Of a DNA stretch of 64,000 nucleotides, positions 1 through 20,565 are shown piece after piece. The DNA lies in contig CAZFXN010000001.1 in assembly GCA_964523015.1 (NCBI GenBank), positions 8,976 through 72,975 of the forward strand, in the 5' to 3' direction. The stretch's first letter is position 1. Each line of letters starts with the position of its first letter. Both the position numbers and the translations under genes were made by a program. The notes beneath the pieces are model-generated. The model did no database searches. It was not told the origin of the DNA and was given only the letters and a program-made list of their open reading frames with translations. Source of the DNA: an uncultured Bdellovibrionales bacterium. GTDB taxonomy: Bacteria > Bdellovibrionota_C > UBA2361 > J135.

Positions 1-1
1 C

Positions 2-1686: not shown

Positions 1687-1705
1687 CGGAATTGGGATTT
1701 AATTT

Positions 1706-4433: not shown

Positions 4434-4859
4434 ATGGATAACGGAGAGGTAATTGGAGCATTAAATGAAGACTGGAACTTTGCTGGTGCAAATCTGCCTG
4501 AGTGGATGTCTGGCTTTGTTGTTTTTCTCATTGCTTCAGAGATGTTCGACAAGATTAGTCGATCGATGCCGATCCTGCTGATGATGTGGATAGGCACAAC
4601 TTTTCTTTTAGCTGCTGCAAGAAAATCATTTCCTGATGAAGAGCGTGGCTTAAGAAATGCAGTCATGGTTGCACTTGGATTTATTCCAATTGGACTTCCA
4701 GCTCCATCTAAATTTTGTCCGATGTGGAGTGGCGCTCCAGTTAAAGAGTTAGGAGAGGATAGTCATTACCAAACTTTAAGATTAGATGAAGCAATTTTAC
4801 GGATTGATGACGGGGAAGAGCCAAACCCTACATACACTCCAAGAGTAGTGAGACAATAA
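4434..4859 (+). CDS. traL: TraL-like small inner-membrane T4SS protein
   Basis: 141 aa with two hydrophobic helices (FVVFLIASEMF; MMWIGTTFLLAAA). It sits immediately upstream of the traE-like gene, as in the F-type traL-traE-traK-traB order. Confidence 0.35.
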   Translation: MDNGEVIGALNEDWNFAGANLPEWMSGFVVFLIASEMFDKISRSMPILLMMWIGTTFLLAAARKSFPDEERGLRNAVMVALGFIPIGLPAPSKFCPMWSGAPVKELGEDSHYQTLRLDEAILRIDDGEEPNPTYTPRVVRQ

Positions 4860-4880
4860 ACAAGGTTATTATAGGTAAAT

Positions 4881-5525
4881 ATGGGAAAGGTTGCGGAGAT
4901 ATTAAGAGCTAGTGAACTGAGAGCCCCGCTCAGTGATAATGACACCATTCGATTATGGGAGAGTCATCAGGAGCAAGCCACACTCTGGCGCTCATTAACT
5001 TTAATTCAAGTTCCAATTACTTTAATCTCTTTAGTACTAGCTCTGGTTTTATGGAGCACAAGAAGCGTAACGCTGAATGTTCCAGCTAAACCATTGCCTG
5101 GAATTTATGCTGCTCAAGATATTCCCGATAGTGAATTTATTGATTTTTCAACTGACTACATTAATTTAATTGCAACATATCAACCAGCAGTTGCTCGTAG
5201 ACAGTTTGAAGAGGCTAGACGAATGCTTTGGAGCCAGATGATTCAGGCTTTTGATTCCGACATGATGGGAACAGAGCTAAGAGCGATCGAAAACACGAAG
5301 CGTACTCAGATCTATTTTGTTGATCCAACAAAAGTAGGAATTAAACGGGAAGGACGAAACGTAACCGTATCTCTTCTTGGTGATCGTTATAAAATTATTG
5401 CTGGCAAAGAGATGCCTGCAGTTAAAACTGAATTTGTAATTACAATGAATACAATTCCAAAGAATAAGTTTAATCCTTATGGAATTGTTGTGACCAATGT
5501 AGCTCTTAAAAATGTGGAGAAATAG
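4881..5525 (+). CDS. traE: TraE-like (VirB8-type) bitopic T4SS protein
   Basis: 214 aa with a single N-terminal TM helix (LIQVPITLISLVLALVLW) and a ~150 aa periplasmic domain. Position is between the traL-like and traK-like genes. Confidence 0.5.
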   Translation: MGKVAEILRASELRAPLSDNDTIRLWESHQEQATLWRSLTLIQVPITLISLVLALVLWSTRSVTLNVPAKPLPGIYAAQDIPDSEFIDFSTDYINLIATYQPAVARRQFEEARRMLWSQMIQAFDSDMMGTELRAIENTKRTQIYFVDPTKVGIKREGRNVTVSLLGDRYKIIAGKEMPAVKTEFVITMNTIPKNKFNPYGIVVTNVALKNVEK

Positions 5526-6342
5526 GATTTTACAAAAGGCAAGCTGTATGGAAACAAAAGTAAAATTGAAAAGTATTGCTCTCATATTCTTACTAGTTGG
5601 TATTGCGACTACCGCTCTAGCTAGGGATGTTGAGTATAACGAGGGCGATGGGGAAATCTCTATCTGGGTAACACCAGGAGAACCAACAAGAGTAGCATTT
5701 CCCGCTATGATTGCTGGTGGATATAAGCGCAAAGATTCAAGTCTTGTCCTTGATAAAAAGGATCATGATCTCATTTTATTTGGCAACCAAACTATCTCTC
5801 CAAATGGAGAAGCTTTTATTGTTCGACTTGAAGATGGACGCTCTTACTCAATTCGAGCTAAAAGAGCGAGTGCTGATAAACCTCGTGATGATGCGGTAAG
5901 TATTACTGACAGTCGTGGCTCAATAATTCTTTCAAAAGAGGAGGAAGAACCAACTTATAGAGAGAAAAGATTTGAGTATGCCCCGCCTAGTCAGATAAGT
6001 GGCTTAATGCGTGAAATGGTTCTGACATCTGAGTTTGGTAAATCAACGATAGCTGGATATCGAAAAAGTGAAAAGTATAGAGGACAAGTTGTACTTAGTG
6101 ACGGCACAATGTTGGCTACTATTGACACTATCTTTATTGGGCCAAATCTTTGGGGATATGTTTTAGATACAAAGAACTTATTAAATACAACACAGAAAAT
6201 TAATCCAGCATCCTTCAGACTTGATGGCACAAGAGCTGTTTCAGCAAGCAATTGGGAATTAACTCCTAAGCCATTTAATATTGAACAGCAGATTGCTGGA
6301 AAAGATTCAACAAAAATTTATATCGTAACTAAGGCACGCTAG
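5512..6342 (+). CDS. traK: TraK-like (VirB9-type) secreted T4SS protein
   Basis: 276 aa with a signal peptide (LKSIALIFLLVGIATTALARD) and a beta-rich domain. It overlaps the traE-like stop and precedes the traB-like gene. Confidence 0.5.
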   Translation: MWRNRILQKASCMETKVKLKSIALIFLLVGIATTALARDVEYNEGDGEISIWVTPGEPTRVAFPAMIAGGYKRKDSSLVLDKKDHDLILFGNQTISPNGEAFIVRLEDGRSYSIRAKRASADKPRDDAVSITDSRGSIILSKEEEEPTYREKRFEYAPPSQISGLMREMVLTSEFGKSTIAGYRKSEKYRGQVVLSDGTMLATIDTIFIGPNLWGYVLDTKNLLNTTQKINPASFRLDGTRAVSASNWELTPKPFNIEQQIAGKDSTKIYIVTKAR

Positions 6343-6352
6343 AAAAGTAAGG

Positions 6353-7528
6353 TTGCATATGAAACAAAAGATTAAAGATTACTTACTACTGCTACAAAAT
6401 GATCGGAAGACCCAGATCTTAACGGGCATTGTACTGGTTATGTTAGTGGCATTTGTGTTTAATTCTCCACCAACAAGGGCCCCACAAAAAGGACCTAAAG
6501 TAACTCAACTTGGAACTGGCGGAACAGGGACTAAAGAAGCTTATGAGGATCTTTTAAATGCGTTCTCTCGAGATCTACAAGTTACCCAGGATCAACTAAA
6601 AAAAGTACAGCAAGAACTAAAGGATAAAGACAAATCCTTCTCTGATTACGACGCTAAAACAGCAGCTATCTTTACTAAAATTCTTGAAAGAATGAATTCT
6701 GGTGAGATGGGAAGTTCTGGCGGGGTTAGTGGGGCTTATGCTCCAATTGATATAGACGGTAGTTCTAGTGCAATTGGAGCTTCTGGATCATTAGCACCTG
6801 GCTCACAGGAACTTGAGCCGTTTGGATTAGATCAATCAGATCCATTACCTCCTCCACCTCCTCCAAGAAACAGATCAGCTTTCGTAGCAGTTGGTGACTC
6901 AGTAAGAATTAAACTTCTTGCGGGCGTGAATGCTCCAACAGACGGAACTCCTTATCCTGTAGTTTTTAAACTAGATGATGACGTGCTTGGTCCTGATGGA
7001 TCTCGCTTGCCATTAGGAGAAGCAAGACTTATTGCCGCAGCCCAAGGATCGCTTAGTGATTCTAGAGCACTCTTTAGACTTACCGATCTTAGCATTAGAC
7101 TTCCTGATGGCCAAAGACGGACTTATAAAGTTGATGGATGGGTTGTCGGAGAAGATGGCATTCGTGGCATGAGGGGAAGGTTAATCGATTATCTTGGCAA
7201 GGCTCTTGGGGCAGCTGGTGCAATTGGTGCAGCAGAAGGGGCAGCAAATGCTCTTCAGGCTGCAAAAACAACTTCTGTTATCTCAGATGATGGAGGTCTC
7301 TCTAATATCGCCACTGGAGGTACTGCTGAATTTATTACTGCAGGTGCTCTATCCGGAGGATTAGGAGCATGGGGAGATATTATCAAGGATCGAATCGATC
7401 AGTTAGTACCACATGTAGAAGTATTGTCTGGCAGAGGAGCAACAGCAATATTTGCAAAATCTGTAGTTATTGATGGTCTATTTGAAGCTCTTGAGGACGA
7501 TAGCACTGCCTTTGGTTCATTAGATTAG
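6353..7528 (+). CDS. traB: TraB/VirB10-like T4SS envelope-spanning protein
   Basis: 391 aa with an N-terminal TM helix (ILTGIVLVMLVAFVF), a Pro-rich linker (DPLPPPPPPRNR) and a C-terminal beta domain (VRIKLLAGVNAPTDGTPYPVVFKL...DGWVVGEDGIRGMRG) typical of VirB10/TraB. The track start is TTG at 6353; ATG at 6359 has a better RBS. Confidence 0.55.
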   Translation: MHMKQKIKDYLLLLQNDRKTQILTGIVLVMLVAFVFNSPPTRAPQKGPKVTQLGTGGTGTKEAYEDLLNAFSRDLQVTQDQLKKVQQELKDKDKSFSDYDAKTAAIFTKILERMNSGEMGSSGGVSGAYAPIDIDGSSSAIGASGSLAPGSQELEPFGLDQSDPLPPPPPPRNRSAFVAVGDSVRIKLLAGVNAPTDGTPYPVVFKLDDDVLGPDGSRLPLGEARLIAAAQGSLSDSRALFRLTDLSIRLPDGQRRTYKVDGWVVGEDGIRGMRGRLIDYLGKALGAAGAIGAAEGAANALQAAKTTSVISDDGGLSNIATGGTAEFITAGALSGGLGAWGDIIKDRIDQLVPHVEVLSGRGATAIFAKSVVIDGLFEALEDDSTAFGSLD

Positions 7529-7545
7529 TTTTTTGTGGAGTTGTT

Positions 7546-8010
7546 ATGAAAAGTAATAAGAGTGGGCTTTTAAAAATTGTGATGGTTGCTACAGCATTAT
7601 TCATCTCAGGGTGTACAGCTATTGGAGATAGATTAAATCCATTTCAAGAGGAGCCAGATCCAATTGCTTTCTTGGGAGATCGAGATGATCACGCTCTAAA
7701 CGGAACAAAAGCGAAAGAAGAGACCGCCAGAACTGCCCTTGAACAGATGGCTAGCTATAGAAGGACGAACTTCCCAGAACCGGTACATCCAGTTATACAA
7801 CCAGCCGTTGTAAGACTTATGTGGATACCGGATCACTTAAACAAAAGCGGGGATCTAGTTCCAGACCACTACTATTATTTAAAAGTTCTTAGCGATCGCT
7901 GGGCAGTACAGGATGCCTTTGAGCTCGAGTCACAACTTGGTCCAAACAAGGATCCAACAAATTTACCTTACGTATATAGCGATGATCGAAAAACTATAAG
8001 AGGACGGTAA
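7546..8010 (+). CDS. traV: TraV-like outer-membrane lipoprotein
   Basis: Lipobox LFISGC. C-terminal VRLMWIPDHLNKSGDLVPDHYYYLKV resembles the TraV signature (RvWvaPw.D..GdLh...yvY). Confidence 0.55.
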   Translation: MKSNKSGLLKIVMVATALFISGCTAIGDRLNPFQEEPDPIAFLGDRDDHALNGTKAKEETARTALEQMASYRRTNFPEPVHPVIQPAVVRLMWIPDHLNKSGDLVPDHYYYLKVLSDRWAVQDAFELESQLGPNKDPTNLPYVYSDDRKTIRGR

Positions 8011-8026
8011 TATTTATTAAGTTTAG

Positions 8027-8596
8027 TTGAATATGATTACTGAGAACAGAAAAACATATATAGCAGCAATAAAGGTAGTCGTACTCTTGGGATGCATTGT
8101 CTTTCTCGTTAGCTGCTCAAGCCAAAAACCTCCTGTTGCGAAAACACCACCTTTATATGACACGGCAAAAAGACAGTTAGCTCCTGAGCCGGTTTATAAT
8201 AGACTGCGCTGGGTCCATTTACCTGAAGTTATTCCTTACAAGGACAATAACAAGGACAAGAAAAAAATCTCTAAGAGCCAAGACTCACTAGAAGACAGGC
8301 CAATGATTTTTCCAATTATGAATTTTGATCTCAAAGATGGAACATTAGCTGAAGCTGCCCAGATGATTGGGGCTAGTGCCAGTTATCGTAGCTACTGCGA
8401 TCCATCAATCGCAGACAAACGACTATCTTTAAATATGCTTGGCACAATTCATGAGTTAGCCAATAGTATTTCAAGGTTAGTTGATGTTGAGATTATAATT
8501 GATCATTCTGCTAGGGAAGTTAGGTTTATGCCCCTAGGCGTAGAGAATAAATTAAGGTTTTTTGATAATACGGTAAGTGAATATGAGCATAGATAG
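8027..8596 (+). CDS. T4SS-associated lipoprotein with secretin-N/TcpQ-like C-terminal domain
   Basis: Lipobox LVSCSS. The C-terminal segment LAEAAQMIGASASYRSYCDPSIADKRLSLNMLGTIHELANSISRLVDVEIIID has an STN/N0-like pattern. It overlaps the traC start by 20 nt. Confidence 0.4.
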   Translation: MNMITENRKTYIAAIKVVVLLGCIVFLVSCSSQKPPVAKTPPLYDTAKRQLAPEPVYNRLRWVHLPEVIPYKDNNKDKKKISKSQDSLEDRPMIFPIMNFDLKDGTLAEAAQMIGASASYRSYCDPSIADKRLSLNMLGTIHELANSISRLVDVEIIIDHSAREVRFMPLGVENKLRFFDNTVSEYEHR

Positions 8597-11351
8597 GTTA
8601 ACACGGGCTCGACTTTATAAAGATGAAGCTCTGTTTAATAAACTACTCCCTTTTGCCAGATATGATATCGAGCAAGGTGTGTTTGTACACGCCGATGCTT
8701 CATTATGGTTGATGTACGAGTTGGAGCCTCTCCTTATAACTGCCACCTCTGATGCCTCTGCTTATCAAACATGCTCTAGTATTCAAGAGCTCTTAGATTC
8801 ATTAGATGTTAGTATTAGTGTCCAGTTTAATTGGGTGGTAACGTTCGACATTGAAGGTCTACTTCAAAAGGCACTCGAGCAGTACCCAGTATCCGGCGTT
8901 GCTGGTTGGATGGCTCGTCGCTGGAACAGAATGATGAAAAAGGCAGCTCGTAGCTCTTTTATTCATCAACGACCTAGAAAAATGCGACTTATCCTTTCTT
9001 TTAGACATGATCCACCATGGAGCAAGGGAAATATATTTCAAGAGCTTAAGAGAGCTTTTTCTATCCTGATTAAAGGTAATGTTGGATTCTCTGCAGATCA
9101 AAGACGAGCAGAGTATCTAAACTACGCCAACAAATTTAAAGGAGAGATTGAGGGTAAAGTATCTCGACTAAGAGACCTTGGTTTCTATCCAAAAAAAGTT
9201 GATGGGCAAGCTTTAATTGATACACTCTATCCGATACTGAATCGACGAAGCGTTAAAGGTGGTAAGTTTAAAAAAGGGCGCACCTCCTCAATCCCTGTGC
9301 CAGTTTTTGATCCGCTTGATTTATTATCAAATCAACTCTCTGAAACTGCTGTTGAGCATCCGCAAAATGGTATTATCAAAAAAGATGGTAGAGTTTTTAG
9401 AACTGTCTCGATGGTAAAATCTCCTAATCAAGCTTTTCCTCTGATGATTGCTCCGCTTCAATCGGCGCCATATGAAAATATTATAAGTGTTACTTATTCA
9501 AAAGATCCGATGCAAGCTCAGATCAAAAAACTTGATACGCTTGATAGCACCCTTGGTCTTCGTGAATTTACTAGCATGGGTAGAGGTAATCAAAAGATTC
9601 AACATCAGATTAGATCTATTAGGGCCGCAAGAGAGAGCTTATATAATAACTCCACTCAAATTGTCCGATTAGGTATCCATCAAACATTTATCTGTCAAAA
9701 TGAACAGGAAGCTATCAGAGCAACCTCTGAGGCAATGGCAGCTTTTCCTCAATTAAATGGTGCTCGTGGCATGGTTCACGAAATTGCTGACCTTGGTGTA
9801 ATGATCAATTCATTACCGGGATGCTATGAGCCAGCACTTGATGGACGTGGATGGACATCTGTATTGCAATCTTCACGCGCAGTTAGAATGCTTCCTTTAT
9901 GGGGCAATTGGAAGGGCAGTAAAGGCTCACTCTTTCTCCTACCAAATCTTTGGAACCGTGAATTAGTAGGATTCGATCTATTCGACTCTAATATTGCACC
10001 TAACGTATTAATAAGCGGAGTATCTGGTGCTGGTAAGAGTTATCTCCTTAACTTTCTTCTGATAACTCTTAATAGAGGGCACTATTCAACTCTCGCAAAT
10101 GGAATGACTGTTGAACGTCCACCAATTACCTTCGTCTTTGACAAAGGAATGCCTAATCAACCGTGTGGATTTGAAAAGATTGCTCATCTATTTGGTGGAA
10201 GAATATACGAAGCTACCCCTTCTAAAGCACCAGCCATGAACTTCTTGGCTCGCTTAGGAGACTGCCCTCACGATAACACCAACGAAGATTTCAAAGATCT
10301 AGTGGATATCTGCTCTGACATAGTTGCAGATATGGCTTCTGAAAATAATCGTCCGTTATCACGACTTCAGGTAGGTGATATTATCACTGCTCTTTTAGAA
10401 GCCCATAGAATCTATAGAGCTGGTCCAATGAAGAGGCAGTTTATTTTAAGTGATGTTGTCGCAGTTCTCCGTGCTCCAAAGAGAGTCGATGAGGATGAGG
10501 CTACAGCTATGCGTCGTGTCGAGATCGCTCTTTTAATGTCTGAGTACTATGGAGAGGGTACATATGCTAGATTCTTTGATAGACCAGGAGCATTAAGACT
10601 AAAAGAAAGATTTATCGTGTTCGATCTTAAGGGATTAAGTAGAAATCCTGACCTACAAAGGGTATTTTTAAAGATCGCTATGCTCTGGGCTGACGAGGTC
10701 ATGAACGATCCAAAAGAGCTCGACTCGAGAAAGGTTCTTGTGTTCGACGAAGCTCATGATCTTATCGGTAAAACATCTTCAGGTGTTATCGAATCAGCTT
10801 TCAGACTTTATCGTAAGAGAAAAGGTATTGTTATTGCCGCTTCTCAATCTGGTGAAGATTTCTATGTTGGTGCTGGTGGACAGGCTATCGTACAAAACAG
10901 CGCGCATAAGATCTTTTTGAGACAAGATCCAAGTAAGTTTCATTTAACAGCAAAAGCGTTCAATCTAAATGAACAACAGAGTGATGTAATTATGCGTTTA
11001 CGTACTATTAAAGGTGTTGAATCTCAATTTTATCTTCTCTCAGATATCGGAGAAGCCGCCCTTGTTCTACCTCTTGAGCCGGCGTACTACTGGGTTAGTA
11101 CAAATAATGGTGACGACAATCAATTATTTCAATCAGTACTTCAGGAATGTAATGGTGATTTTGCAGCAGCACTTGAGAGAGTAAGTATTATAGCTCCAAG
11201 TGGCGCAAGTGCGTTTGCACAGTACAGAGCTGCTATGCAGCAGGCTCAAGAGCAATCTCGAAATGGCGAAAATTCCGTTTCAAAAACAATTAATACCGCT
11301 TTAGGTCAAAATACAGGTTCAAATTCTATTATAAAGGAGCAGCAAATATGA
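8577..11351 (+). CDS. traC: TraC/VirB4-family T4SS ATPase
   Basis: 924 aa with Walker A GVSGAGKSYLLNFLL and Walker B VLVFDEAHDL. The length fits F-type TraC. Confidence 0.85.
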   Translation: MNMSIDRLTRARLYKDEALFNKLLPFARYDIEQGVFVHADASLWLMYELEPLLITATSDASAYQTCSSIQELLDSLDVSISVQFNWVVTFDIEGLLQKALEQYPVSGVAGWMARRWNRMMKKAARSSFIHQRPRKMRLILSFRHDPPWSKGNIFQELKRAFSILIKGNVGFSADQRRAEYLNYANKFKGEIEGKVSRLRDLGFYPKKVDGQALIDTLYPILNRRSVKGGKFKKGRTSSIPVPVFDPLDLLSNQLSETAVEHPQNGIIKKDGRVFRTVSMVKSPNQAFPLMIAPLQSAPYENIISVTYSKDPMQAQIKKLDTLDSTLGLREFTSMGRGNQKIQHQIRSIRAARESLYNNSTQIVRLGIHQTFICQNEQEAIRATSEAMAAFPQLNGARGMVHEIADLGVMINSLPGCYEPALDGRGWTSVLQSSRAVRMLPLWGNWKGSKGSLFLLPNLWNRELVGFDLFDSNIAPNVLISGVSGAGKSYLLNFLLITLNRGHYSTLANGMTVERPPITFVFDKGMPNQPCGFEKIAHLFGGRIYEATPSKAPAMNFLARLGDCPHDNTNEDFKDLVDICSDIVADMASENNRPLSRLQVGDIITALLEAHRIYRAGPMKRQFILSDVVAVLRAPKRVDEDEATAMRRVEIALLMSEYYGEGTYARFFDRPGALRLKERFIVFDLKGLSRNPDLQRVFLKIAMLWADEVMNDPKELDSRKVLVFDEAHDLIGKTSSGVIESAFRLYRKRKGIVIAASQSGEDFYVGAGGQAIVQNSAHKIFLRQDPSKFHLTAKAFNLNEQQSDVIMRLRTIKGVESQFYLLSDIGEAALVLPLEPAYYWVSTNNGDDNQLFQSVLQECNGDFAAALERVSIIAPSGASAFAQYRAAMQQAQEQSRNGENSVSKTINTALGQNTGSNSIIKEQQI

Positions 11352-11656
11352 AATCTTTAATTTTAACTCGAATCTTTCAATCTTTTTGTGTAGTGTTGAT
11401 AGGAATACTGACTGGTTGTGCAGCAGTTAATCCATTTGTACATACAAAAACTGTTTACCGTGAAGTTCCTATTAGTGGACCAAAGGCTGATGTTCCTCCT
11501 GGAGTAGTTGAATATGTTTGGGAAGAGCCTATGGTCGATGTTGTTGACGTGCCGCCAGGATTAGATCCTGAAGGAAGATATTATAGACCTGGTCATCAAG
11601 CTGTAGTTGAAGTTCGCCAAGGTAGATGGAGACATTACAAACTGGAGAATAACTAA
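11348..11656 (+). CDS. small lipoprotein
   Basis: Lipobox ILTGCAAV. ATGA overlap with the traC stop. Confidence 0.4.
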   Translation: MKSLILTRIFQSFCVVLIGILTGCAAVNPFVHTKTVYREVPISGPKADVPPGVVEYVWEEPMVDVVDVPPGLDPEGRYYRPGHQAVVEVRQGRWRHYKLENN

Positions 11657-12059
11657 GTATAGGAGGTTTATTATGGGAGTTCTCTCAGCACGATCTTTTG
11701 TTGCACCGATACTAGATAAGAAAAATCTAATTGCCATCGTTCTTATTGCTGTATTCTTTGCTGTCTATAGGCTTTCAGGGGGCTCTATTGAAACTGGTTC
11801 AAATCAAAGTCGCTCAAACTTAAAAGTAGCACCAGTAAGTGATTCATTTTTCGATCAGATGACTGAATCAGAGTCAATCTCTCCAATTTCAGATCTTAAA
11901 AAGATTCAAGGGAATGAATCCGCTAGGCCAACCAAAAGGAAAGCTGCCTCAAGTGATCTACTAGATGATATTTTGGTTGATAGGAAACCTAAGGAGGAAG
12001 CCCCTACTGGATCAAACTCCCAGCTTGATGATATCGAAAGGAGTCTTGGATTACGTTAA
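11607..12059 (+). CDS. hypothetical bitopic membrane protein
   Basis: Likely true start is ATG at ~11673, preceded by the strong RBS TAGGAGG. N-terminal TM helix LIAIVLIAVFFAVY. Confidence 0.4.
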   Translation: MKFAKVDGDITNWRITKYRRFIMGVLSARSFVAPILDKKNLIAIVLIAVFFAVYRLSGGSIETGSNQSRSNLKVAPVSDSFFDQMTESESISPISDLKKIQGNESARPTKRKAASSDLLDDILVDRKPKEEAPTGSNSQLDDIERSLGLR

Positions 12060-12073
12060 TTTAAAATTGTTAT

Positions 12074-12604
12074 ATGATAGAGGGACAGATTACATTCAAT
12101 CGAAGTTGGCGCTCTCAATGGCAACGCATGATCGTTTTCTTTGTTCTCTCTGGAATAAGTATTTTTTTGTCCTCATATTTTCCTGAAAGCATCATAAGAG
12201 GTCGCTTATTTACCATCGCTGGCGAAGCATTTTTTTTGAACCTTCCTCTATTTAGTTTTTTACCTTTGTACGGATTAGTTAATTTAATGTTGCCGATATA
12301 CGATGCTAGATTTACGATTGATAATCGTGGTCTTGAATCTCGGATAGGAATATTGTCTCTTAATCAACGAATTGTAAAGGTTCGGTATGAAGACATTCGC
12401 AGCCTTGAGCTCAATCAAACTTTACTAGATCGCGGTATTAACGTCGGTGCTATCTCAATTGGCAGTGCTGCAACAAGTACCATTGAAATTGTCTTTGACG
12501 GACTAGTTGAGCCCGTCGAGATTAAAAATCTTATACAACTAGAAAGAGATTCAAGGTTACGTAAAGCGTCATCTGATGAGAAAAAGATTCAGGCAGCGCT
12601 ATAG
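12074..12604 (+). CDS. membrane protein with bacterial PH (bPH_2/YdbT-like) domain
   Basis: Two N-terminal TM helices followed by a domain matching the bPH_2 pattern (RFTIDNRGLESRIGILSLNQRIVKVRYEDIRSLELNQTLLDRG...IEIVFDG). Confidence 0.5.
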   Translation: MIEGQITFNRSWRSQWQRMIVFFVLSGISIFLSSYFPESIIRGRLFTIAGEAFFLNLPLFSFLPLYGLVNLMLPIYDARFTIDNRGLESRIGILSLNQRIVKVRYEDIRSLELNQTLLDRGINVGAISIGSAATSTIEIVFDGLVEPVEIKNLIQLERDSRLRKASSDEKKIQAAL

Positions 12605-12621
12605 TTTTTTGGAGGTATTTT

Positions 12622-13689
12622 ATGAGGTTTGTTTTTAAATCTGCCATAATGGCAAACTATCTGTCAGTAGTCCTGTTAGCGATCCTGATAAGTACATTAA
12701 TTATTTCCAATTCTGCTAAGGCTGATAAGGTCGTAGAAAATCTTAAAGATAAAATCTCAACTCTTAAAGCTAGCGTAGAGGGATCTGATACGAGCGATCG
12801 TGATTTTAGTGCCGAACAGGAAGAGTTCGACCGCATGAGAGAGCAACTCCTTGCTGCAGAAAATGAAATTATAAAAGGGGAAACCAAGAAATCATTAAAT
12901 CAAGCGACTGTATCTGCTGATTATGAATATAAAAAGGAATATCAAAAGGAAGCAAAACTACCTAAAAACGATGATAGCTTTACGGAAGATCTTGATGATT
13001 CCTTAGAGAAGGATGCTAGAGCTGAGATGGCTAAAAAAGCAATCGACAGTACCTTTCAAGAGAATGAAGAATTAAAAGCAAAGTATCAAACTGCACTTAC
13101 CCAACTAGCTGCTAGAAACAAAGAATTGACAGCTCTAAGATCAGAGAAAACTTCTGTTACATCTGAGTCAAAAGTATCTAGAGATAAAATTGCATCCTTA
13201 CAAAAAGAGCTTCAAGGAGCAAAAAATAAACTCCTGGTTAGTGAAGCAGAGGTGGAAAGATTATCCGCACTAGCTGGATCCGGAGCTAAACATGCTAGAC
13301 TCCCTGCTCCTGCTACTGGACGCTCTTCAGTTTACTCAACTGCTAATAGTAACGTACAGACAACTTCCATTAAGCCTGAAACTTCTGATCTAACTGTTTT
13401 AACAGTGGTTGCTAGCAAAGCATACCTACGAACTGGTCCTGGAAAAGATAATTCTCCACTAATGGAGGTACGAAGCGGTACTAAACTAGCTGTAGAAGAC
13501 AGACAGGGAAATTGGTTTAGAGTGACAACGCCTACTGGCACACGTGCCTGGATCGCTTCCGAAGTAGTTGCATTTGGACCGAGCAGTACTGCTCGTCCAT
13601 CCCAAACTGTAAAAATTAAAGCTTCAAGTGAAAAAAATGATCAGATCGAAGAAAAAGCGTTTGAGCTTATTAATAAGCATTCTCGCTAG
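12622..13689 (+). CDS. secreted coiled-coil protein with C-terminal SH3b domain
   Basis: Signal/TM at the N-terminus, a long heptad-rich region (EEFDRMREQLLAAENEI...LQKELQGAKNKLLVSEAEVERL) and a C-terminal SH3_3-like segment AYLRTGPGKDNSPLMEVRSGTKLAVEDRQGNWFRVTTPTGTRAWIASEVV. Confidence 0.5.
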   Translation: MRFVFKSAIMANYLSVVLLAILISTLIISNSAKADKVVENLKDKISTLKASVEGSDTSDRDFSAEQEEFDRMREQLLAAENEIIKGETKKSLNQATVSADYEYKKEYQKEAKLPKNDDSFTEDLDDSLEKDARAEMAKKAIDSTFQENEELKAKYQTALTQLAARNKELTALRSEKTSVTSESKVSRDKIASLQKELQGAKNKLLVSEAEVERLSALAGSGAKHARLPAPATGRSSVYSTANSNVQTTSIKPETSDLTVLTVVASKAYLRTGPGKDNSPLMEVRSGTKLAVEDRQGNWFRVTTPTGTRAWIASEVVAFGPSSTARPSQTVKIKASSEKNDQIEEKAFELINKHSR

Positions 13690-14173
13690 TCTTTTACTAT
13701 TAACGATTGGGTTTCCTAATTTGCCAATCATTGCAGCCCCTAAATTTCCTGGGGATGCATTGAGTACATTTGTTTTTCCACTTTTTGCACCAAGAAAATC
13801 TAGCCCCTTTGGCGAGCGTAAGCATCCGATACTTCGTAAGGTCCGCCACCATGCTGGAATAGATCTAGCTGCCCCTAAGGGAACCCCTATACGTTCGATT
13901 ATGAGTGGTACTGTAGTGTTTGCTGATGACTATGAGGGGTATGGCAAACTAATTACTATTCGACATAATGATGAGCTTACAAGCCACTATGGGCACTGTG
14001 ATAAGATTAAAGTTGAAGTTGGTAAAAGAATAAAAGCAGGTCAGATTATTGGGACAGTAGGTGAAACAGGGCTTGCTTCTGGACCGCACCTTCATTTTGA
14101 AATACGGATAAAAGGAAAGGCTTACAATCCTGAACTCCTTATCCCAGAGTTAAATTCTGAGGCTAAGGGATAA
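13628..14173 (+). CDS. M23 family (LytM-type) peptidoglycan endopeptidase
   Basis: Signal peptide, HAGIDLAAPKGTPIRS (HxxxD metal site) and GYGKLITIRHNDELTSHYGHCD...GPHLHFEIR (HxH motif). It overlaps the upstream gene by ~55-62 nt (GTG 13628 or ATG 13637). Confidence 0.8.
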   Translation: MKKMIRSKKKRLSLLISILASLLLLTIGFPNLPIIAAPKFPGDALSTFVFPLFAPRKSSPFGERKHPILRKVRHHAGIDLAAPKGTPIRSIMSGTVVFADDYEGYGKLITIRHNDELTSHYGHCDKIKVEVGKRIKAGQIIGTVGETGLASGPHLHFEIRIKGKAYNPELLIPELNSEAKG

Positions 14174-14458
14174 TCCTGATTGGTTTCAACTAGTTAGTAG
14201 CCTACCTAGAACTCTGCTAACATATCACCGTATGCAACTAAGAGGATGATTATCCCCATAACATTAGTAATAAAAATGGGACATCTGCCCAACGTGAGTT
14301 GTCGCCAAATTTTATTTTTTTAGGGTGCTTTTTAATATCCCAAAAGGTTATAACTTTGGTTACCTGCCTAGGATGTAAGATTGCAACCTATTAAAGATAG
14401 TATTTGGGGGCAATTCATAAGTAAGCATCTGTCGAAATAAATTAATATAGAAAATATA

Positions 14459-14902
14459 GTGAAAAAACTAATTGGAGTTACTATGAATGAAGTTAATTCT
14501 CTTTTACAAAAAGTAAAGGGAAGCTTTCTATCTACTGGTCAATATATTGGGGCTGTATTTTATGCACCTACAAGAGGCCAGAGTCAGATTGCTCTTTTCT
14601 TACTTGGAGTTATTATCCTATCAGGCGGTCTTACAATCCATGCAATTGCTCAAGGTGATGTGGGATCAGACCTCGTAGGTGAATACAATGACGAGCGTGT
14701 TTCTGAGGCCGTTAATAGAATCTTCGCTTATATCGAAGGTTCCTTTGGAGCCTTAATCATGGTTGCTGCTGGTTTAGGAGCAATTATGGCGGCTGCGTTC
14801 GGACAATATAGAGCTGCTTTAGGATTACTTGTTGTAGCGGTTGGATCATTTATCCTTCGCTCTCTTGTTGGAACATTCTTTAACACAGAGACAATTCAAT
14901 AA
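14459..14902 (+). CDS. T4SS pilin-like protein, paralog 1 (TrbC/VirB2/TraA-type architecture)
   Basis: Long leader with a TM helix ending AIAQ, then a ~85-aa region with two hydrophobic helices rich in small residues (GSFGALIMVAAGLGAIMAAAFG...GLLVVAVGSFILRSLVGTFFNTETIQ). Likely true start is ATG at 14483. Confidence 0.5.
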   Translation: MKKLIGVTMNEVNSLLQKVKGSFLSTGQYIGAVFYAPTRGQSQIALFLLGVIILSGGLTIHAIAQGDVGSDLVGEYNDERVSEAVNRIFAYIEGSFGALIMVAAGLGAIMAAAFGQYRAALGLLVVAVGSFILRSLVGTFFNTETIQ

Positions 14903-14940
14903 CGACAATCCAGTAATCAAAAGAGCTTGATAAGAGCTCT

Positions 14941-14970
14941 AAAAGGGACCTTTAGGGGTCCCTTTTATTT
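14941..14970 (+). terminator. rho-independent terminator after pilin paralog 1
   Basis: aaaaGGGACCtttagGGGTCCCtttta: 6-10 bp GC stem followed by a T-run. A second hairpin agagct..agctct lies at 14921..14939. Confidence 0.7.
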
Positions 14971-15031
14971 TGTCCCCTTTTTATTTTTTCATTATTGACG
15001 GTCATACAGTGATAGTCGTATGATTGATCTA

Positions 15032-15087
15032 ATGTAGCATTAGCTACATATTTATCTAAGCGTTTATCTAAGCGTTTATCTAAAGCG
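15032..15087. repeat. 7-bp-arm palindrome (atgtagc-atta-gctacat) followed by 3 tandem copies of tttatctaa(a)gcg
   Basis: Direct reading of 15032..15049 (palindrome) and 15051..15087 (12-nt unit x3). It lies ~30 nt upstream of the OMP gene start. Confidence 0.8.
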
Positions 15088-15115
15088 GACCTTATTAAAA
15101 TCAAGCGGAGACCGT

Positions 15116-15943
15116 ATGGCATTCTATAAAAAATTCCCTTTTGTTGTTGCAGTGCCTTTTCTTTATATCTCTCCTATGATTGCCAAGGCTGAGACTGGGC
15201 CATTGGGATTTGGTTCTCCTCAGTTTAGCGAAGATATGGAAACTGACCGTCCTGATTTTTCTGAGGGCACTAAAACTGTTGAAGCTGGACACCTACAGAT
15301 AGAAGCGGGGTATACCTTTACTGATAATAATGACGGTGGAGTGATAACTGAATCACACGCAGTTCCAGGGGTACTGGTCCGTATTGGATTAGCTCCAAAA
15401 TATGAACTCAGAATAGGTTGGCAAGGATTTATAGATTCGGAAACAACATCATCAGGTGACAATGCTCAGTCAGATGGTGTTGGCGATATGTCAATTGGCA
15501 CAAAGTTTAGACTTCAAGAAAACGATGCAGGATGGGATGTAAGTAGTATAATAGAAACCTCCTTACCTGTTGGAGATGATGAGGTTGCATCCGATAAACA
15601 TGAGCCTGCTGTTAAATTACTATTTGCCAAGGACTTATCTAGTGACCTTTCATTTGCAACAAATTTGAATGCTACCTACGTTAGTGGCAGTACAGAAAGG
15701 TATTATGAGCTAGCGGCGTCGGCATCATTTGGCACTGACCTAACTGACACCATCGGGCTATTTTTAGAATACTATGGGCAATTTCCTCTTGAAAATGTCC
15801 CTGAAGAGAATCTTCACACTTTAAATGGTGGTCTAACCCTCGCGCTAGATGAAAACCTACAGCTAGATGCATTTGTTGGAACCGGTCTTAATGCTGAAGC
15901 AGATGATTTCTTTACCGGCTTTGGTGTGAGTTTCCGAATGTAA
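15116..15943 (+). CDS. outer-membrane beta-barrel protein (transporter-type OMP)
   Basis: Signal peptide ending AKAET. Alternating hydrophobic beta-strand pattern, aromatic-rich, C-terminal ...GFGVSFRM. It sits between pilin paralogs 1 and 2. Confidence 0.45.
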   Translation: MAFYKKFPFVVAVPFLYISPMIAKAETGPLGFGSPQFSEDMETDRPDFSEGTKTVEAGHLQIEAGYTFTDNNDGGVITESHAVPGVLVRIGLAPKYELRIGWQGFIDSETTSSGDNAQSDGVGDMSIGTKFRLQENDAGWDVSSIIETSLPVGDDEVASDKHEPAVKLLFAKDLSSDLSFATNLNATYVSGSTERYYELAASASFGTDLTDTIGLFLEYYGQFPLENVPEENLHTLNGGLTLALDENLQLDAFVGTGLNAEADDFFTGFGVSFRM

Positions 15944-16157
15944 ATAGTTCTTGATTTATAACTACCTAATTTGTCAGTTAAATATCATCCCCTAACAGGA
16001 TTGATAAACTAAGTCACATATACCTTAAAACCACACATAACACTGCTCATCAAGGTGATATGTCCAACTCTAGCTAGTTCGTATCGCATCAAGTTCTCAC
16101 CAGGTTTCTTTCTCGGTTTTCAACAAAAAAAACGTTAATTTAAACACGGAGACGACA

Positions 16158-16589
16158 ATGTCTGTCTATACGTCATTGATAACCAAAGTAAGTAACTCGA
16201 CACAAAATGTAAGCCAGTATTTAGGCCAGTATTTAAGCACGATGTTTAATGCTCCAACAAAGAAGCAAACTCAATTTATGCTCTTCTGCCTAGGAATAAC
16301 GCTAGTTGCTTCAGGCATTACCGTTGAATTGCTAGCTCAAGGCGATGTGGGATCTGACCTCGTTGGTGAATATAACGATGAGCGTGTAGGTGAAGCTGTT
16401 AATAGAATCTTTGCCTATATTGAGGGATCTTTTGGAGCTTTAATCATGGTAGCCGCTGGATTAGGAGCAATTATGGCAGCTGCCCTTGGTAGCTACTCAG
16501 CAGCTATTGGACTCTTAGTAGTGGCAGTTGGAGCTTTCGTACTTAGATCTCTAGTTGGAACATTCTTTAATACTGAAAGTATTCAGTAA
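16158..16589 (+). CDS. T4SS pilin-like protein, paralog 2
   Basis: The C-terminal 85 aa are near-identical to paralog 1 (GDVGSDLVGEYNDERVGEAVNRIFAYIEGSFGALIMVAAGLGAIMAAALG...LRSLVGTFFNTESIQ), but the N-terminal leader is unrelated. RBS GGAGA upstream. Confidence 0.5.
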   Translation: MSVYTSLITKVSNSTQNVSQYLGQYLSTMFNAPTKKQTQFMLFCLGITLVASGITVELLAQGDVGSDLVGEYNDERVGEAVNRIFAYIEGSFGALIMVAAGLGAIMAAALGSYSAAIGLLVVAVGAFVLRSLVGTFFNTESIQ

Positions 16590-16616
16590 TAATTGGGTGA
16601 TACTGTGCATAAAAGT

Positions 16617-16653
16617 GAGGTTAGTCTACTGATAAACCTCTCTTTTATATTTT
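16617..16653 (+). terminator. putative terminator after pilin paralog 2
   Basis: gaggtt...aacctc stem followed by tcttttatatttt. The loop is long, so prediction is weaker. Confidence 0.4.
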
Positions 16654-16717
16654 AAATGATCTATTAGCGATATATAACAGTTGAATAATTTCAGCCCTAA
16701 GTTAGAATAGTACTATT

Positions 16718-17068
16718 ATGAACCGCCAGCACATACAAAGCCTACTCATTCTAGTTGCCTATGCTCTTATCTTAAGCATCTCTGTGACTGCTTACTCTAA
16801 TATTAATTTTATTGACCTCTCTGATTTTCCAGGCAATGCCCCTGGTTACTATAACGATTTACGGATCGGAGAAGTTGTGAACCGGATCCTTAACTACCTA
16901 GAAGGAAGCCTTGGTGCGTTGATTATGGTTAGTGCCGGATTGCTTGCAATCCTTAGTGCCGCTTTTGGAAACTATAGAGCTTCTATAGCACTCCTTGTGG
17001 TTGCGATCGGGCCATTCATTCTCCGGTCATTTGTTGGTAGCTTTTTTAATGATGAAAATATTCGGTAG
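16718..17068 (+). CDS. T4SS pilin-like protein, paralog 3 (divergent)
   Basis: 116 aa. Signal peptide, then the same two-helix core with ~50% identity (VVNRILNYLEGSLGALIMVSAGLLAILSAAFGNYRASIALLVVAIGPFILRSFVGSFFNDENIR). Confidence 0.5.
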   Translation: MNRQHIQSLLILVAYALILSISVTAYSNINFIDLSDFPGNAPGYYNDLRIGEVVNRILNYLEGSLGALIMVSAGLLAILSAAFGNYRASIALLVVAIGPFILRSFVGSFFNDENIR

Positions 17069-17103: not shown

Positions 17104-18381
17104 TCATCTCTCGATCCCTAAGATCTTTTTAGCTTCTTCTGGCAAAACTAACCAAGCTTTTTCAGCTTGTCCTGATTCTCTAGTTAAATAATCCCAAAGT
17201 GGTTCACACTTTCCTAAAGATTCCTTTCTCCCATCATCAAGTAATACTTGCATTGAACTCTTAAGATCACCGGCATGTACATCTTCAGTGGTGATATGGT
17301 GTAAGTAATAAGTGGGATCAAATCCAGCATCGGACACTGCTTGTCTCGCTCGCGCAAACAACTGCTTTGAATCTTCCCCTTTTGGAATACGTATAGTTTT
17401 AAGTAAATTTCTATTTATTAATCGATCTGATAGATCACGTAAAATTGTGTCCTCCTCCTTTGACCACATTAATACGTGATAATTCCACCACGATTCTCTC
17501 ATGGCAAAGATCGTATCAAGAGGTAGCTCTAATGAATTCTTACTATTTAAAACCTGCCTTGAATATTGATCAGTAAATTTAAGATCCTTACCTAGATGCC
17601 GTGCCCGATCAACTATCGCTTTATTAAGAGTTTCAGAGGAAAGGAGTACTCGATGATGATAAACCTGGCGATACATTGAATGTCTAGCAATAGCAAAATG
17701 CACCATCGCATCCAATCTATTCTCCCTTAAAGCTATATGGCCATCAGAGGTAATAACCATTGATTCAATAAGTGCTGGAATATTATAACGACCATAGGTG
17801 ACCCCAGCCATTACACTATCAACGATACACCAATTCCCTCTATCAACATTCCATCCACCACCTGAGATAACCTCCCAAGTCCAAGGAGGAATATCTTCAG
17901 ATTCGGATAGAATTTTGCAAACCTTATCTGATAAATCTTTCCCATATTTATTCAGCACTGCTTGTATCTGAGGATCTTCTTGAATAATTTTAATTGAAAC
18001 TTCTTCGTGGCAATCCGGTGCGCCAGGATACCAAGTCTTATAGGCGGTATGAGATCCTGGAGCAATATGGCCAATATCATGAAGCAGGGCTGCCGCACTA
18101 ACAGCCGTTCTATACTCCTCTATCTCTTTAGCCTCCTTTTCTGAATATTGAGCCAATTGATTCATCAAATGACATGCTAGGTAAGCAACCCCTAATGAAT
18201 GACCAAACCTAGAATGCTCAGAGAACATATAAACTAATTTAGTGTTTCCTGTTTGGGCAATATCACGCAATCTTTGAAACCAATTAGTATCAACTAGATC
18301 TAAAACAATTGCTTCTGACTCTATATTTTTAGAGAAGTACATCGTTTGATGAACGACATCTGCAAAGGAAATTTTTGACAT
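17104..18381 (-). CDS. HD-domain dNTP triphosphohydrolase-like phosphohydrolase
   Basis: HD motif FGHSLGVAYLA...LLHDIGHIAPGSH. Overall pattern of the dGTPase/COG1078 family. Confidence 0.7.
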   Translation of the reverse strand: MSKISFADVVHQTMYFSKNIESEAIVLDLVDTNWFQRLRDIAQTGNTKLVYMFSEHSRFGHSLGVAYLACHLMNQLAQYSEKEAKEIEEYRTAVSAAALLHDIGHIAPGSHTAYKTWYPGAPDCHEEVSIKIIQEDPQIQAVLNKYGKDLSDKVCKILSESEDIPPWTWEVISGGGWNVDRGNWCIVDSVMAGVTYGRYNIPALIESMVITSDGHIALRENRLDAMVHFAIARHSMYRQVYHHRVLLSSETLNKAIVDRARHLGKDLKFTDQYSRQVLNSKNSLELPLDTIFAMRESWWNYHVLMWSKEEDTILRDLSDRLINRNLLKTIRIPKGEDSKQLFARARQAVSDAGFDPTYYLHHITTEDVHAGDLKSSMQVLLDDGRKESLGKCEPLWDYLTRESGQAEKAWLVLPEEAKKILGIER

Positions 18382-18391
18382 GAGACAACTC

Positions 18392-19549
18392 CTAACTAAA
18401 TGAGGCTTGGGTGACAGGGATTGCCTGAGTAGCCACTATTTCAATCCCAAAAGTATTTAAACCGACTAATTTTCTCTTACTATTGGTTAATAGATTAATC
18501 TTTTTTACACCTAAATCTAAAAGTATCTGTGCTCCAATTCCATATTCCTTCATCCGATCTGGGGATAAATTTAACTCATTCCCCACACCACTAATCTCTT
18601 TGGTCAGATGACCCACCTCGATTTTTCTTAGGTATAGCAAAACCCCACTGCCCTCTTTTTGAATTGCCTCAAGGCAACTTGCTATCACATCTCTACTTGA
18701 GGGCTTGAGGCCTCCAAAAACATCAGCAAATGTGTTTTCTGTTTGAACTCTTATCAAGACAGGTTTATTAGAATCTATCTCCCCTTTAACTAAAGCTAAA
18801 TGCTCACCACCATGAAGCTCAGACTCAAAGATATAAGCCTTTAACTCTCCGGCTATGCTACTAGGGATAACAGTTTGAGCGACTCTAGATACGATCCTCT
18901 CTTTCTCTAATTTATACCGGATAATATCACTTAGTTTTATAAGGGGGAGCTCGAGCTTTTTAGAAAGGGTGAGCTGATCGCTCGAATTTAAAAATTCTCC
19001 CTCTTGAGATAAGAGGTCAATCATTACCGCTGCATCACTTACTCCTAGAGATGAAACAACATCAAGTGCTCCTTCAATTAGAGAATTTCTAACTAAAACA
19101 CCTCCTTTTCGAGCCTCAACAGGAAAGATATGTCCAGGGCTAACTAGCTTTCGTTTATCTGGAACCTCTTCTCCTAAAATTCTAATTGTACAGGCTCTAT
19201 CTGCGATGCTTATTCCTGTGCTTACTCCCTCTCGTGCCTCAACAGAGATACAGTGTCCATTAAGATCACTTTCATTATTAGGTGAGATCCTTCTAGCAGA
19301 CTTCATTTTAGTTAACCCAAAATCTGCTACCCGCTGTGGGCCTACTACAACATAAACTAACCCATGGGCAATGCTAATCATCTCATTTAAGACTGATTCT
19401 TTAATATCTTGGGCGAATGAAACTAAGACAGCACGAGGATTCTCGCCACAATCATCTGAAAGAATAAGAATTTTTCGTTCTTTAAAATTTTTGAGGCTTA
19501 TTGCGATATCACCAGACATAGCGGTTTTGTAATAAATTAAGGAGCACAA
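18392..19549 (-). CDS. RibBA-like protein (DHBP synthase + GTP cyclohydrolase II folds) lacking catalytic residues
   Basis: N-half aligns to RibB (SPGHIFPVEARKGGVLVR) but has DDCGENPRAV where RibB has DDEDRENEGD. C-half aligns to RibA (GVLLYLR...GIGAQILLDLGVKKINLLTN) but lacks the three Zn-ligand Cys (LIRVQTENTFADVFGGLKPSSRD vs SECLTGD...RCDCG). Confidence 0.65.
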   Translation of the reverse strand: MCSLIYYKTAMSGDIAISLKNFKERKILILSDDCGENPRAVLVSFAQDIKESVLNEMISIAHGLVYVVVGPQRVADFGLTKMKSARRISPNNESDLNGHCISVEAREGVSTGISIADRACTIRILGEEVPDKRKLVSPGHIFPVEARKGGVLVRNSLIEGALDVVSSLGVSDAAVMIDLLSQEGEFLNSSDQLTLSKKLELPLIKLSDIIRYKLEKERIVSRVAQTVIPSSIAGELKAYIFESELHGGEHLALVKGEIDSNKPVLIRVQTENTFADVFGGLKPSSRDVIASCLEAIQKEGSGVLLYLRKIEVGHLTKEISGVGNELNLSPDRMKEYGIGAQILLDLGVKKINLLTNSKRKLVGLNTFGIEIVATQAIPVTQASFS

Positions 19550-19779
19550 TGATACTTAATCTCCCTAAAAATAGCAAAATTTCTCATTATTATTTAGGTA
19601 ATATTCGCAGAAAAATCGCTCATAAGCATGGTGGCAATCAGATAGAAATAAATGATTATAATTTATCTTAGAAAATTATACTGATCTAAAAAGTGTGGTC
19701 AAGAAACTGCATTCCTCCTCCGATACTAAGATATAAGTTAGCGATCTTTATCTTTAAGCCTCAAGGGTAGTGGGTAGTA

Positions 19780-20223
19780 ATGGAACCATCAGTTGAGTTA
19801 AATAATGTAGCTAATAATGCAAATCTAAAAATTATAGAGGCTCGCCGAACAGCTTTTGTAGCAAGATTTATTGTCCTAAGAGAAGCTAGACGAACACGAG
19901 CTCACAGAAATATCGAAAAAATGGACTGGTATATTCATACCTCAGCTGAAGAGTTAGCTGAGCGGTTTCGTCAAGCTTTTATAGAGAATGGCGACAACAT
20001 GGTGCCAGTGAATCGCGATATCCGACGTGCTTTGGCTCATGCGGAAAGATCAATAAATCATTTCATTGGTGAATACGCATCAAGATCTACTTACAATTTC
20101 ATTGACTCTTTATGTGACTATGAGCGATCTAACAAGCTTCTCTTCGGTGAAGATGAGTCTCCAAAAGCTGGTGGGTGGCGACTTATTCAAGAGTTGCTAA
20201 GAGAAAGAACTCCTAAGAAATAA
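19780..20223 (+). CDS. hypothetical protein
   Basis: 147-aa ORF divergent from the ribBA-like operon. No recognisable motif. Confidence 0.4.
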   Translation: MEPSVELNNVANNANLKIIEARRTAFVARFIVLREARRTRAHRNIEKMDWYIHTSAEELAERFRQAFIENGDNMVPVNRDIRRALAHAERSINHFIGEYASRSTYNFIDSLCDYERSNKLLFGEDESPKAGGWRLIQELLRERTPKK

Positions 20224-20226
20224 AGA

Positions 20227-20565
20227 TTAAGATTTCTTAATCTTTGACTGCTCAGGATCTATTATATCTCCAAGATGATCATGATCATCTCGCCATTCTT
20301 TATCTGTAAAATAGAGAAAGCAGAGAATTTCTGCTACTAATTTAAAACTCTCTTCTGGTATTGTATTGCCCGTTTCTATCTTTGATAAAAGATCTGACAG
20401 GGTGTCATCTTTAGTAACTGGCACGCCATTTGATTTAGCAATCGCTACGATCTGTCGAGCTAACTCCCCATATCCTTTTGCTACGATGGTAGGAATCTCA
20501 CTAGCATCATGATATTTAAGCGCAATAGCACGCTCTCGATCCTTATTGTCTTGTTCATCACTCAT
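20227..20565 (-). CDS. FlhB C-terminal domain-like protein (YlqH/EscU-fragment family)
   Basis: IPTIVAKGYGELARQIVAIAKSNGVPVTKDDTLSDLL...EESFKLVAEILCFLYF matches the FlhB/EscU cytoplasmic-domain pattern. Confidence 0.6.
   Translation of the reverse strand: MSDEQDNKDRERAIALKYHDASEIPTIVAKGYGELARQIVAIAKSNGVPVTKDDTLSDLLSKIETGNTIPEESFKLVAEILCFLYFTDKEWRDDHDHLGDIIDPEQSKIKKS

Follow-up and report, generated by a model that had tools for sequence, protein, structure and literature searches.

What can be the role of a RibBA-like protein in which the catalytic residues of both domains are lost and whose gene lies directly upstream of a gene for an HD-domain phosphohydrolase? This question is raised by a gene pair in a stretch of DNA of 64,000 nucleotides (nt) from an uncultured Bdellovibrionales bacterium; the whole stretch is referred to as the window. 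The RibBA-like protein, designated pseudo-RibBA, is a pseudoenzyme maintained by selection, and its gene is strictly linked to that of the hydrolase. The reading that accounts best for the data, although it is held tentatively, is that pseudo-RibBA, without being catalytic itself, regulates or activates a housekeeping deoxynucleoside triphosphate (dNTP) triphosphohydrolase (dNTPase) as its subunit. The gene pair consists of the following elements.

18392–19549, minus strand: pseudo-RibBA gene; the longest open reading frame (ORF) comprises 385 residues, starting from TTG 19549 (assigned by means of Pfam, NCBIfam and an AlphaFold2 (AF2) model).
18914–19495, minus strand: domain resembling 3,4-dihydroxy-2-butanone 4-phosphate (DHBP) synthase (DHBPS), residues 19–212; Pfam DHBP_synthase (PF00926), 124 bits.
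18431–18886, minus strand: domain resembling GTP cyclohydrolase II (GCHII), residues 222–373; Pfam GTP_cyclohydro2 (PF00925), 125 bits.
18382–18391, minus strand: intergenic spacer of 10 nt that separates the pseudo-RibBA gene from the HD gene; it includes part of the latter's Shine-Dalgarno sequence AGGAG.
17104–18381, minus strand: gene of an HD-domain phosphohydrolase of the EF1143/SAMHD1 class, a predicted dNTP triphosphohydrolase of 425 residues.

The probable true start of pseudo-RibBA is ATG 19519 (M11), where the homologs also begin. The resulting protein of 375 residues is identical to the database protein P0001 (375 residues). Both Pfam domains score above their gathering thresholds, and the protein thus possesses the two-domain fold of DHBPS and GCHII. 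The AF2 model has a predicted local distance difference test score (pLDDT) of 87 and superposes on RibA2 from M. tuberculosis (4i14) with a TMq of 0.78 (Foldseek). The nearest solved structures are this enzyme (phmmer E-value 2e-44) and RibBX from A. baumannii (6mnz). However, the best ribBA equivalog model of NCBIfam, NF006803, gives 239.5 bits compared to a cutoff of 569.

For the analysis of functional residues, E. coli RibB and RibA from NC_000913 served as reference, and their numbering is used throughout. The 120 best-matching clusters of homologs (at least 120 exist), which are 42–60% identical to the window protein, represented the pseudo-RibBA family. They were compared to 56 RibBA and RibBX sequences found among the matches listed by a genome-contig scan with the family alignment. 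The scan patterns were back-translated from this alignment and were common to canonical RibBA too; only one true family locus (L003) was among the matches listed, and the other loci yielded canonical references.

The residues R37, E38, D42, C67, H136, R150, T154, E155 and E174 of DHBPS are present in 55–56 of the 56 references. The window protein has lost R37, E40, D42, C67 and T154; another sequence stands in place of the acidic RENEGD loop, and an Asp in place of E174. Positions 42, 67 and 154 contain a Val, a Tyr and an Ile, respectively, and H136, R150 and E155 are retained. Family-wide, none of the 120 clusters has an Asp at position 42 (Val, Ile or Ala instead). C67 is kept in seven clusters and is mostly a Phe, T154 is kept in two and is mostly a Pro, and E174 is an Asp in 110. 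The position of E38 is variable, and the acidic loop varies in length and sequence. H136 and E155 are kept in all 120 clusters and a Lys or Arg is found at position 150 in 113. The family therefore does not contain the catalytic and metal-binding set R37, E38, D42, C67, T154 and E174. The initial annotation had stated that the acidic metal-binding motif of RibB is replaced. This is correct with regard to the loop and to D42; in the window copy, a dipeptide E36-N37 can be placed opposite the metal-binding E38-N39, but this position is not conserved in the family.

The losses in the GCHII-like domain are of the same kind. The zinc ligands C54, C65 and C67 (CX2GX7CXC) are replaced in the window protein by an Asn, a Pro and a Ser, as had been noticed initially, and Y105 is replaced by a Val. 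None of the three cysteines occurs in the family (0/120), whereas all of them occur in 38 of the 56 references. Position 105 contains a Trp, Ser, Leu or Val in the family, such that both the zinc site and Tyr105 are missing. The QEGRG loop, K154 and a DTVEAN segment of about 10 residues are absent as well, and of the canonical motifs that contact the nucleotide, about half are lost. Low pLDDT values are seen in the blocks with the former zinc loop (means 67 and 74) and where the segment with QEGRG and Tyr105 would sit (means 69, 56 and 69). A further statement, the loss of the catalytic Arg/Tyr pair, holds for Tyr105; at the position of Arg128 the window copy has a Lys, but 107 of the 120 clusters have an Arg (12 have a Lys). 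Overall, the alignment to the E. coli enzymes and the 56 references confirms that the 385-residue ORF is a full-length, doubly degenerate RibBA paralog.

No conserved acid or cysteine of the family takes the place of the lost ligands, and the most common Cys column lies outside the zinc loop. Because the catalytic residues are lost family-wide, both canonical activities, DHBP synthesis and GTP ring opening, are considered excluded for pseudo-RibBA, as judged from the aligned residues. That the gene encodes a working RibBA whose catalytic residues are unusual, or that it is a decaying pseudogene, is hardly credible: the Pfam scores are indeed above the gathering thresholds, but the values are far below the equivalog cutoffs, replacements for the lost ligands are missing, and the ORF is intact in at least 120 clusters.

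Within the 120 clusters, 38 columns are invariant and about 50 are nearly invariant. Since the losses are family-wide and yet 38 columns are invariant, which contradicts decay, pseudo-RibBA is a selected pseudoenzyme under purifying selection and no decaying gene. The family is monophyletic and forms its own clade in a neighbour-joining tree; the mean identity is 49% within the family and 33% to canonical RibBA. Its net charge is about 0, compared to −8.6 in the canonical proteins. The deletion of the DTVEAN segment, which is shared with RibBX, suggests a RibBX ancestry of the family, with the neighbour-joining tree leaving the branching undecided. RibBX from A. baumannii (6MNZ) is the fusion of a RibB with a degenerate RibA-like domain that Brutinel et al. 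reportedly described for proteobacteria in 2013. Among the 56 references, 18 are RibBX-like, having no zinc cysteines of GCHII and an intact RibB domain. They are mostly from metagenome-assembled genomes (MAGs) of Alphaproteobacteria, Verrucomicrobia and Acidobacteria; the 56 references as a whole come from diverse GTDB genomes (among loci L004–L082).

Has the family exchanged its former activities for a new one? A neofunctionalised, still catalytic RibBA-like protein would carry out one of several consecutive steps of nucleotide catabolism together with the HD hydrolase. It could, for instance, release pyrophosphate from GTP or another nucleotide independently of zinc by means of the retained Arg128-type residue, or handle triphosphate, the product of the dNTPase. 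The zinc ion bound by the three cysteines of GCHII is needed for ring opening and is dispensable for pyrophosphate release, which is served by Arg128 (PMC10366380). The prevalence of Arg at this position agrees with such a function. The same is true for R49, D58, Y88 and R90, which are kept in all 120 clusters including the window copy, and for the complete conservation of H136 and E155 in the RibB domain. In addition, one of the few newly conserved residues of the family is a near-invariant Arg that adjoins the former position of Cys67. Nevertheless, we consider a new catalytic function unlikely. The family no longer has Tyr105, the QEGRG loop, K154 or the DTVEAN segment, the window copy itself contains a Lys in place of Arg128, the regions of the former catalytic loops are modelled with low confidence, and the metal-binding loop of RibB is variable in sequence and length.

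The partner protein has largely preserved its active site. The HD protein matches EF1143 from E. faecalis (PDB 2o6i, also 3irh and 4lrl) with an E-value of 1e-34 as a single sequence and end-to-end with 1e-48 when the family profile is used; the next-best structures are 2q14, 2hek and SAMHD1. The label "dGTPase-family" of the initial annotation thus refers to the wrong subfamily. The Dgt model TIGR01353 reaches 25.3 bits compared to a cutoff of 152 and covers residues 55–105 only, which contain the HD motif; the antiphage_dGTPase model NF041026 of NCBIfam reaches 21.8 bits compared to a cutoff of 400. A Dgt-family identity was rejected, as only the HD motif matches, with about 22–25 bits versus cutoffs of 152–400.

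The 22 functional residues of EF1143 were taken from PMC3190883 and mapped onto 55 members of the HD family. Eighteen are identical, 17 of them in 55/55 and F64 in 54/55 sequences. The metal ligands H66, H110, D111 and D183 and the histidines H114, H119 and H129 are invariant (55/55). The same is true for Y239 (3'-OH), Y243, D191, Q48, H61 and R63 (α-phosphate), which recognize the deoxyribose moiety. Of the residues of the allosteric dGTP site, Q41, R44, R326 and K330 are invariant and F64 is the residue with the single exception; N36 is replaced by an Asp, and K14 and K422 are outside the aligned stretch. Further changes are Thr instead of L49 and Trp instead of Y187, and the DxDRMDY motif reads NVDRGNW.

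The striking deviation concerns the dyad acid E122, which is replaced by a Tyr in 31, a Phe in 22 and a Trp in one of the 55 sequences. The GSHTA[YF]KTW segment of the family contains no Asp or Glu at all, and all five solved relatives that were aligned carry a Glu or Asp at this position. In SAMHD1, the corresponding D218 forms a hydrogen bond to the general acid His215, and the exchange D218A lowers kcat about 40-fold (PMC7311409). The HD protein therefore looks like a predicted dNTP triphosphohydrolase that is complete except for the acid positioning the general-acid histidine. This absence specifically suggests why the enzyme might depend on a partner. The family is 55–77% identical across the lineage (56–77% over the top 120 clusters) and nearly all of its members consist of exactly 422 residues. 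This combination of identity and fixed length is the pattern of a housekeeping gene.

How closely are the two genes linked? As stated initially, both ORFs are located on the minus strand with a spacing of 10 nt and the HD gene downstream. The AGGAG sequence is positioned 7 nt ahead of the ATG of the HD gene, and no terminator-like site was found between the two genes; the proposed co-transcription is supported. A candidate promoter precedes the pair, and on its far side a small gene is encoded divergently.

19675–19702, minus strand: promoter-like site TTGACC-16-TATAAT (11/12 matches), located some 150 nt ahead of the start of pseudo-RibBA.
19780–20223, plus strand: gene of a small basic, all-helical protein of 147 residues, divergent from pseudo-RibBA; often, though not always, found next to the pair.

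No Rfam match was obtained for the leader (about 150 nt) that precedes pseudo-RibBA. The sequence TTCTTGA, which represents the −35 element of the promoter-like site, is conserved in the intergenic regions of relatives. The divergent intergenic region (19520–19779) and its equivalents in L003 and L083–L091 are otherwise poorly conserved overall; an invariant TCGG is located about 20 nt upstream of TTCTTGA.

The HD gene lies directly downstream of pseudo-RibBA on the same strand in 28 loci, namely the window, nine protein-anchored relatives, whose pseudo-RibBA is 42–60% identical to the window copy, and 18 metagenome loci. The latter stem from an independent contig scan that was anchored on the neighbouring small protein. 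Note that some of the 28 loci are near-duplicates from related samples and do not represent independent events. In the 22 loci with a clear start codon, the junction is an ATGA overlap of 4 nt in 13 cases and an overlap of 8 nt in one case; in the remaining ones the genes are 1–14 nt apart. Moreover, 27 of 120 entries link the independently compiled top-120 lists of pseudo-RibBA and HD homologs by exactly matching lengths of the longest contig, eight of them on contigs shorter than 5 kb. The outer context on the HD side varies and comprises a response regulator with a che operon, COX15 with ABC transporters, FliW-CsrA-flagellin, PGM-SurA or, in the window, an island related to type IV secretion systems (T4SS). 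The other side (the small ORF, an FlhB-C-like gene, NAGPA and IspG) is syntenic in several relatives. These data show a strict operon linkage of pseudo-RibBA and the HD gene, and the pairing recurs in every relative examined. It had initially been called undescribed. In accordance with this, literature searches found no paper on the pairing, and none that deals with a RibBA inactive in both domains or with a dNTPase that has a RibBA-like partner.

Linkage of this kind could also arise if two independent genes shared an operon by chance and pseudo-RibBA were a moonlighting or structural protein whose function has nothing to do with the HD enzyme. Such a coincidence is quite improbable, given the adjacency in 28 loci at 42–60% identity with changing outer context and mostly with an ATGA overlap. 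In its favour one can cite that the interaction of the proteins is inferred, and that a rearrangement separates the genes in locus L138. Even there, the two genes are still at most 1.4 kb apart.

The reading of pseudo-RibBA as a regulatory or activating subunit of a dNTPase can be formulated as follows. In an uncultured Bdellovibrionota-like lineage, the two genes would form a vertically inherited operon, and translational coupling would keep the pseudoenzyme in a fixed ratio to the HD hydrolase. Pseudo-RibBA would bind to the hydrolase as a non-catalytic subunit and activate, stabilise or gate it, possibly triggered by a phosphorylated metabolite in one of its relic pockets. The pair may thereby control the housekeeping dNTP pool. 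Physical association, the direction of regulation, the ligand and the dNTPase activity itself are all inferred. The pseudoenzyme evolves fastest (42–60% identity) and the HD protein more slowly (55–77%), which fits an accessory, non-catalytic role of the former.

Several observations weigh against the subunit reading. In L138, the HD gene is located beyond the small gene and on the opposite strand from pseudo-RibBA, with all three genes within 3.8 kb; because the HD gene has been relocated there, co-translation is not obligatory. Contact between pseudo-RibBA and the HD protein is presumed, and no fusion proteins were seen. Conserved residues that are specific to the pseudo-RibBA family and could indicate a new pocket are few. 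The residue mapping was based on sequence alignment alone. On the side of the hydrolase, D123 is invariant in the family and precedes H125 by two residues; it could take over from the missing dyad acid, and the HD enzyme would then be sufficient by itself. Finally, the HD protein has a dGTP allosteric site of its own and no obvious need for an external nucleotide sensor. The suggestion that pseudo-RibBA is a GTP-sensing regulator of the hydrolase appears weakened, because the HD protein keeps this EF1143-type site and the GCHII-like domain has lost nucleotide-contact motifs.

A more far-reaching version is conceivable, in which pseudo-RibBA is an obligate, prozyme-like subunit that completes a handicapped dNTPase and couples dNTP destruction to a metabolite, with the small basic protein as third component. 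This version is doubtful. Equally doubtful is its extension to a previously unknown system of dNTP-pool control in predatory Bdellovibrio-like bacteria, in which the metabolite would be read by the relic pockets for GTP and pentose phosphate. With respect to the small gene, 28 metagenome loci have at least 1.7 kb of flanking sequence on the relevant side; 19 of them carry pseudo-RibBA and the HD gene and nine do not. An obligate triad of the pair and the small protein was rejected, as the small gene occurs apart from the pair in these 9/28 loci. In three of these pair-less loci (L143, L146 and L155) the downstream gene was scanned, and ahcY was found at a distance of no more than about 1.2 kb.

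Does the locus serve riboflavin synthesis or defence instead? Scanning the whole 64-kb window with Rfam gave no match and thus no flavin mononucleotide (FMN) riboswitch. There is no second RibBA-like sequence in the window, and no rib-family Pfam matches were found among the 32 window ORFs scanned and no rib-family genes among those called in the loci of relatives. Pseudo-RibBA is thus found without the rib operon or riboswitch that would indicate a riboflavin context.

HD enzymes that deplete dNTPs are known defence effectors, and PADLOC holds a dGTPase model. A nucleotide-depletion module for defence or stress had been offered initially as one option; in an anti-phage or stress module of this kind, the dNTPase would be armed by a sensor subunit. 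In addition, a weak match of the HD protein to the dGTPase model of PADLOC (22.6 bits over the HD motif) and the T4SS-like island that abuts the pair in the window could be taken as hints. Against this, the antiphage_dGTPase score is far below its cutoff, and the island is specific to the window and replaced by other genes in relatives. For pseudo-RibBA and the small protein, PADLOC gave no match. In the phage and plasmid collections, nothing beyond remote canonical RibB/RibBA or unspecific HD proteins with at most 31% identity was found, and no relatives of the pair. The G+C content is uniform across the window. Synteny is conserved on one side of the pair (NAGPA, FlhB-C-like, IspG), which differs from the mobile context, patchy spread and defence neighbours of an anti-phage island, and identity and length (about 422 residues) of the HD protein suggest vertical housekeeping descent. 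Because riboswitch and rib genes, meaningful PADLOC matches and phage or plasmid relatives are all missing, a mobile defence module is unlikely; the armed dNTPase in particular is very improbable, and the defence option is disfavoured relative to a housekeeping role.

The surroundings of the pair in the window contain the following further elements.

1–17068, plus strand: conjugation/T4SS-like cluster that extends as far as the 3' end of the HD gene.
1706–3820, plus strand: TraG_N.
4881–5525, plus strand: TraE.
6353–7528, plus strand: TrbI.
8577–11351, plus strand: TraC/VirB4-like ATPase.
12622–14173, plus strand: SH3 domain and M23 peptidase; a bPH_2 protein is a further member of the cluster.
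15116–15943, plus strand: outer-membrane channel of the MetA type.
14459–14902, 16158–16589 and 16718–17068, plus strand: three paralogous small proteins with a hydrophobic tail and no Pfam match.
20227–20565, minus strand: stand-alone protein of 112 residues that corresponds to the C-terminal part of FlhB/YscU only (Bac_export_2, profile positions 262–334).

The T4SS cluster looks like an island specific to the window genome, as relatives have other genes at this site. The three small paralogs share a C-terminal segment, ...GDVGSDLVGEYNDERVxEAVNRIFAYIEGSFGALIMVAAGLGAIMAAA..., and are possibly pilin-like subunits of the adjacent cluster. In L085 and L094, the gene of the FlhB-C-like protein of 112 residues is likewise conserved in the vicinity of the pair.

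If our reading is true, pseudo-RibBA would be the first known RibBA-derived protein that has lost both activities and is yet maintained by selection, and the HD protein would be the first bacterial dNTPase of the SAMHD1/EF1143 type with a dedicated accessory subunit. How a lineage with replicating and non-replicating life stages gates its dNTP pools would then be a testable question. In the HD partner, the acid whose exchange severely impairs SAMHD1 is missing by nature, and the protein would provide a natural experiment on the mechanism of this enzyme class. There is also a practical consequence. Source databases label pseudo-RibBA homologs as functional ribBA, so that the initial steps of riboflavin synthesis will be assigned in error when metabolism is reconstructed automatically from these MAGs.

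Among known systems, canonical RibBA (M. tuberculosis RibA2, 4I14) has the same two-domain fold, and its motifs EAxxGVxTGISxxDR, PGH and YGxGAQIL are kept in pseudo-RibBA. In contrast to RibBA, pseudo-RibBA has lost both catalytic centres and lacks a context of rib genes or an FMN riboswitch; its net charge is close to zero (about −8.6 in RibBA) and an HD hydrolase gene follows. RibBX likewise contains no zinc cysteines of GCHII and shows the same kind of DTVEAN deletion. However, it keeps the full DHBPS set (55–56 of the 56 references), which pseudo-RibBA has lost too, so that the latter is not a RibBX. With Dgt and the anti-phage dGTPases, the HD partner is expected to share the (d)NTP triphosphohydrolase chemistry of the HD superfamily; these enzymes belong to another, hexamer-type subfamily, and the pair is not located in a defence island. 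The AdoMetDC "prozyme" of T. brucei (PMC5201418) embodies the same concept, a dead but conserved protein that regulates an active enzyme. The prozyme differs in being a paralog of its partner, whereas here a RibBA fold would associate with an HD fold. Most closely related to the HD partner are the tetrameric dNTPases EF1143 from E. faecalis and SAMHD1, with which it shares the metal ligands, the catalytic histidines, the deoxyribose-binding tyrosines and the dGTP site. Compared to these two enzymes, the HD partner is without the dyad acid and has an obligatory-looking pseudoenzyme as neighbour, which is absent from both of them.

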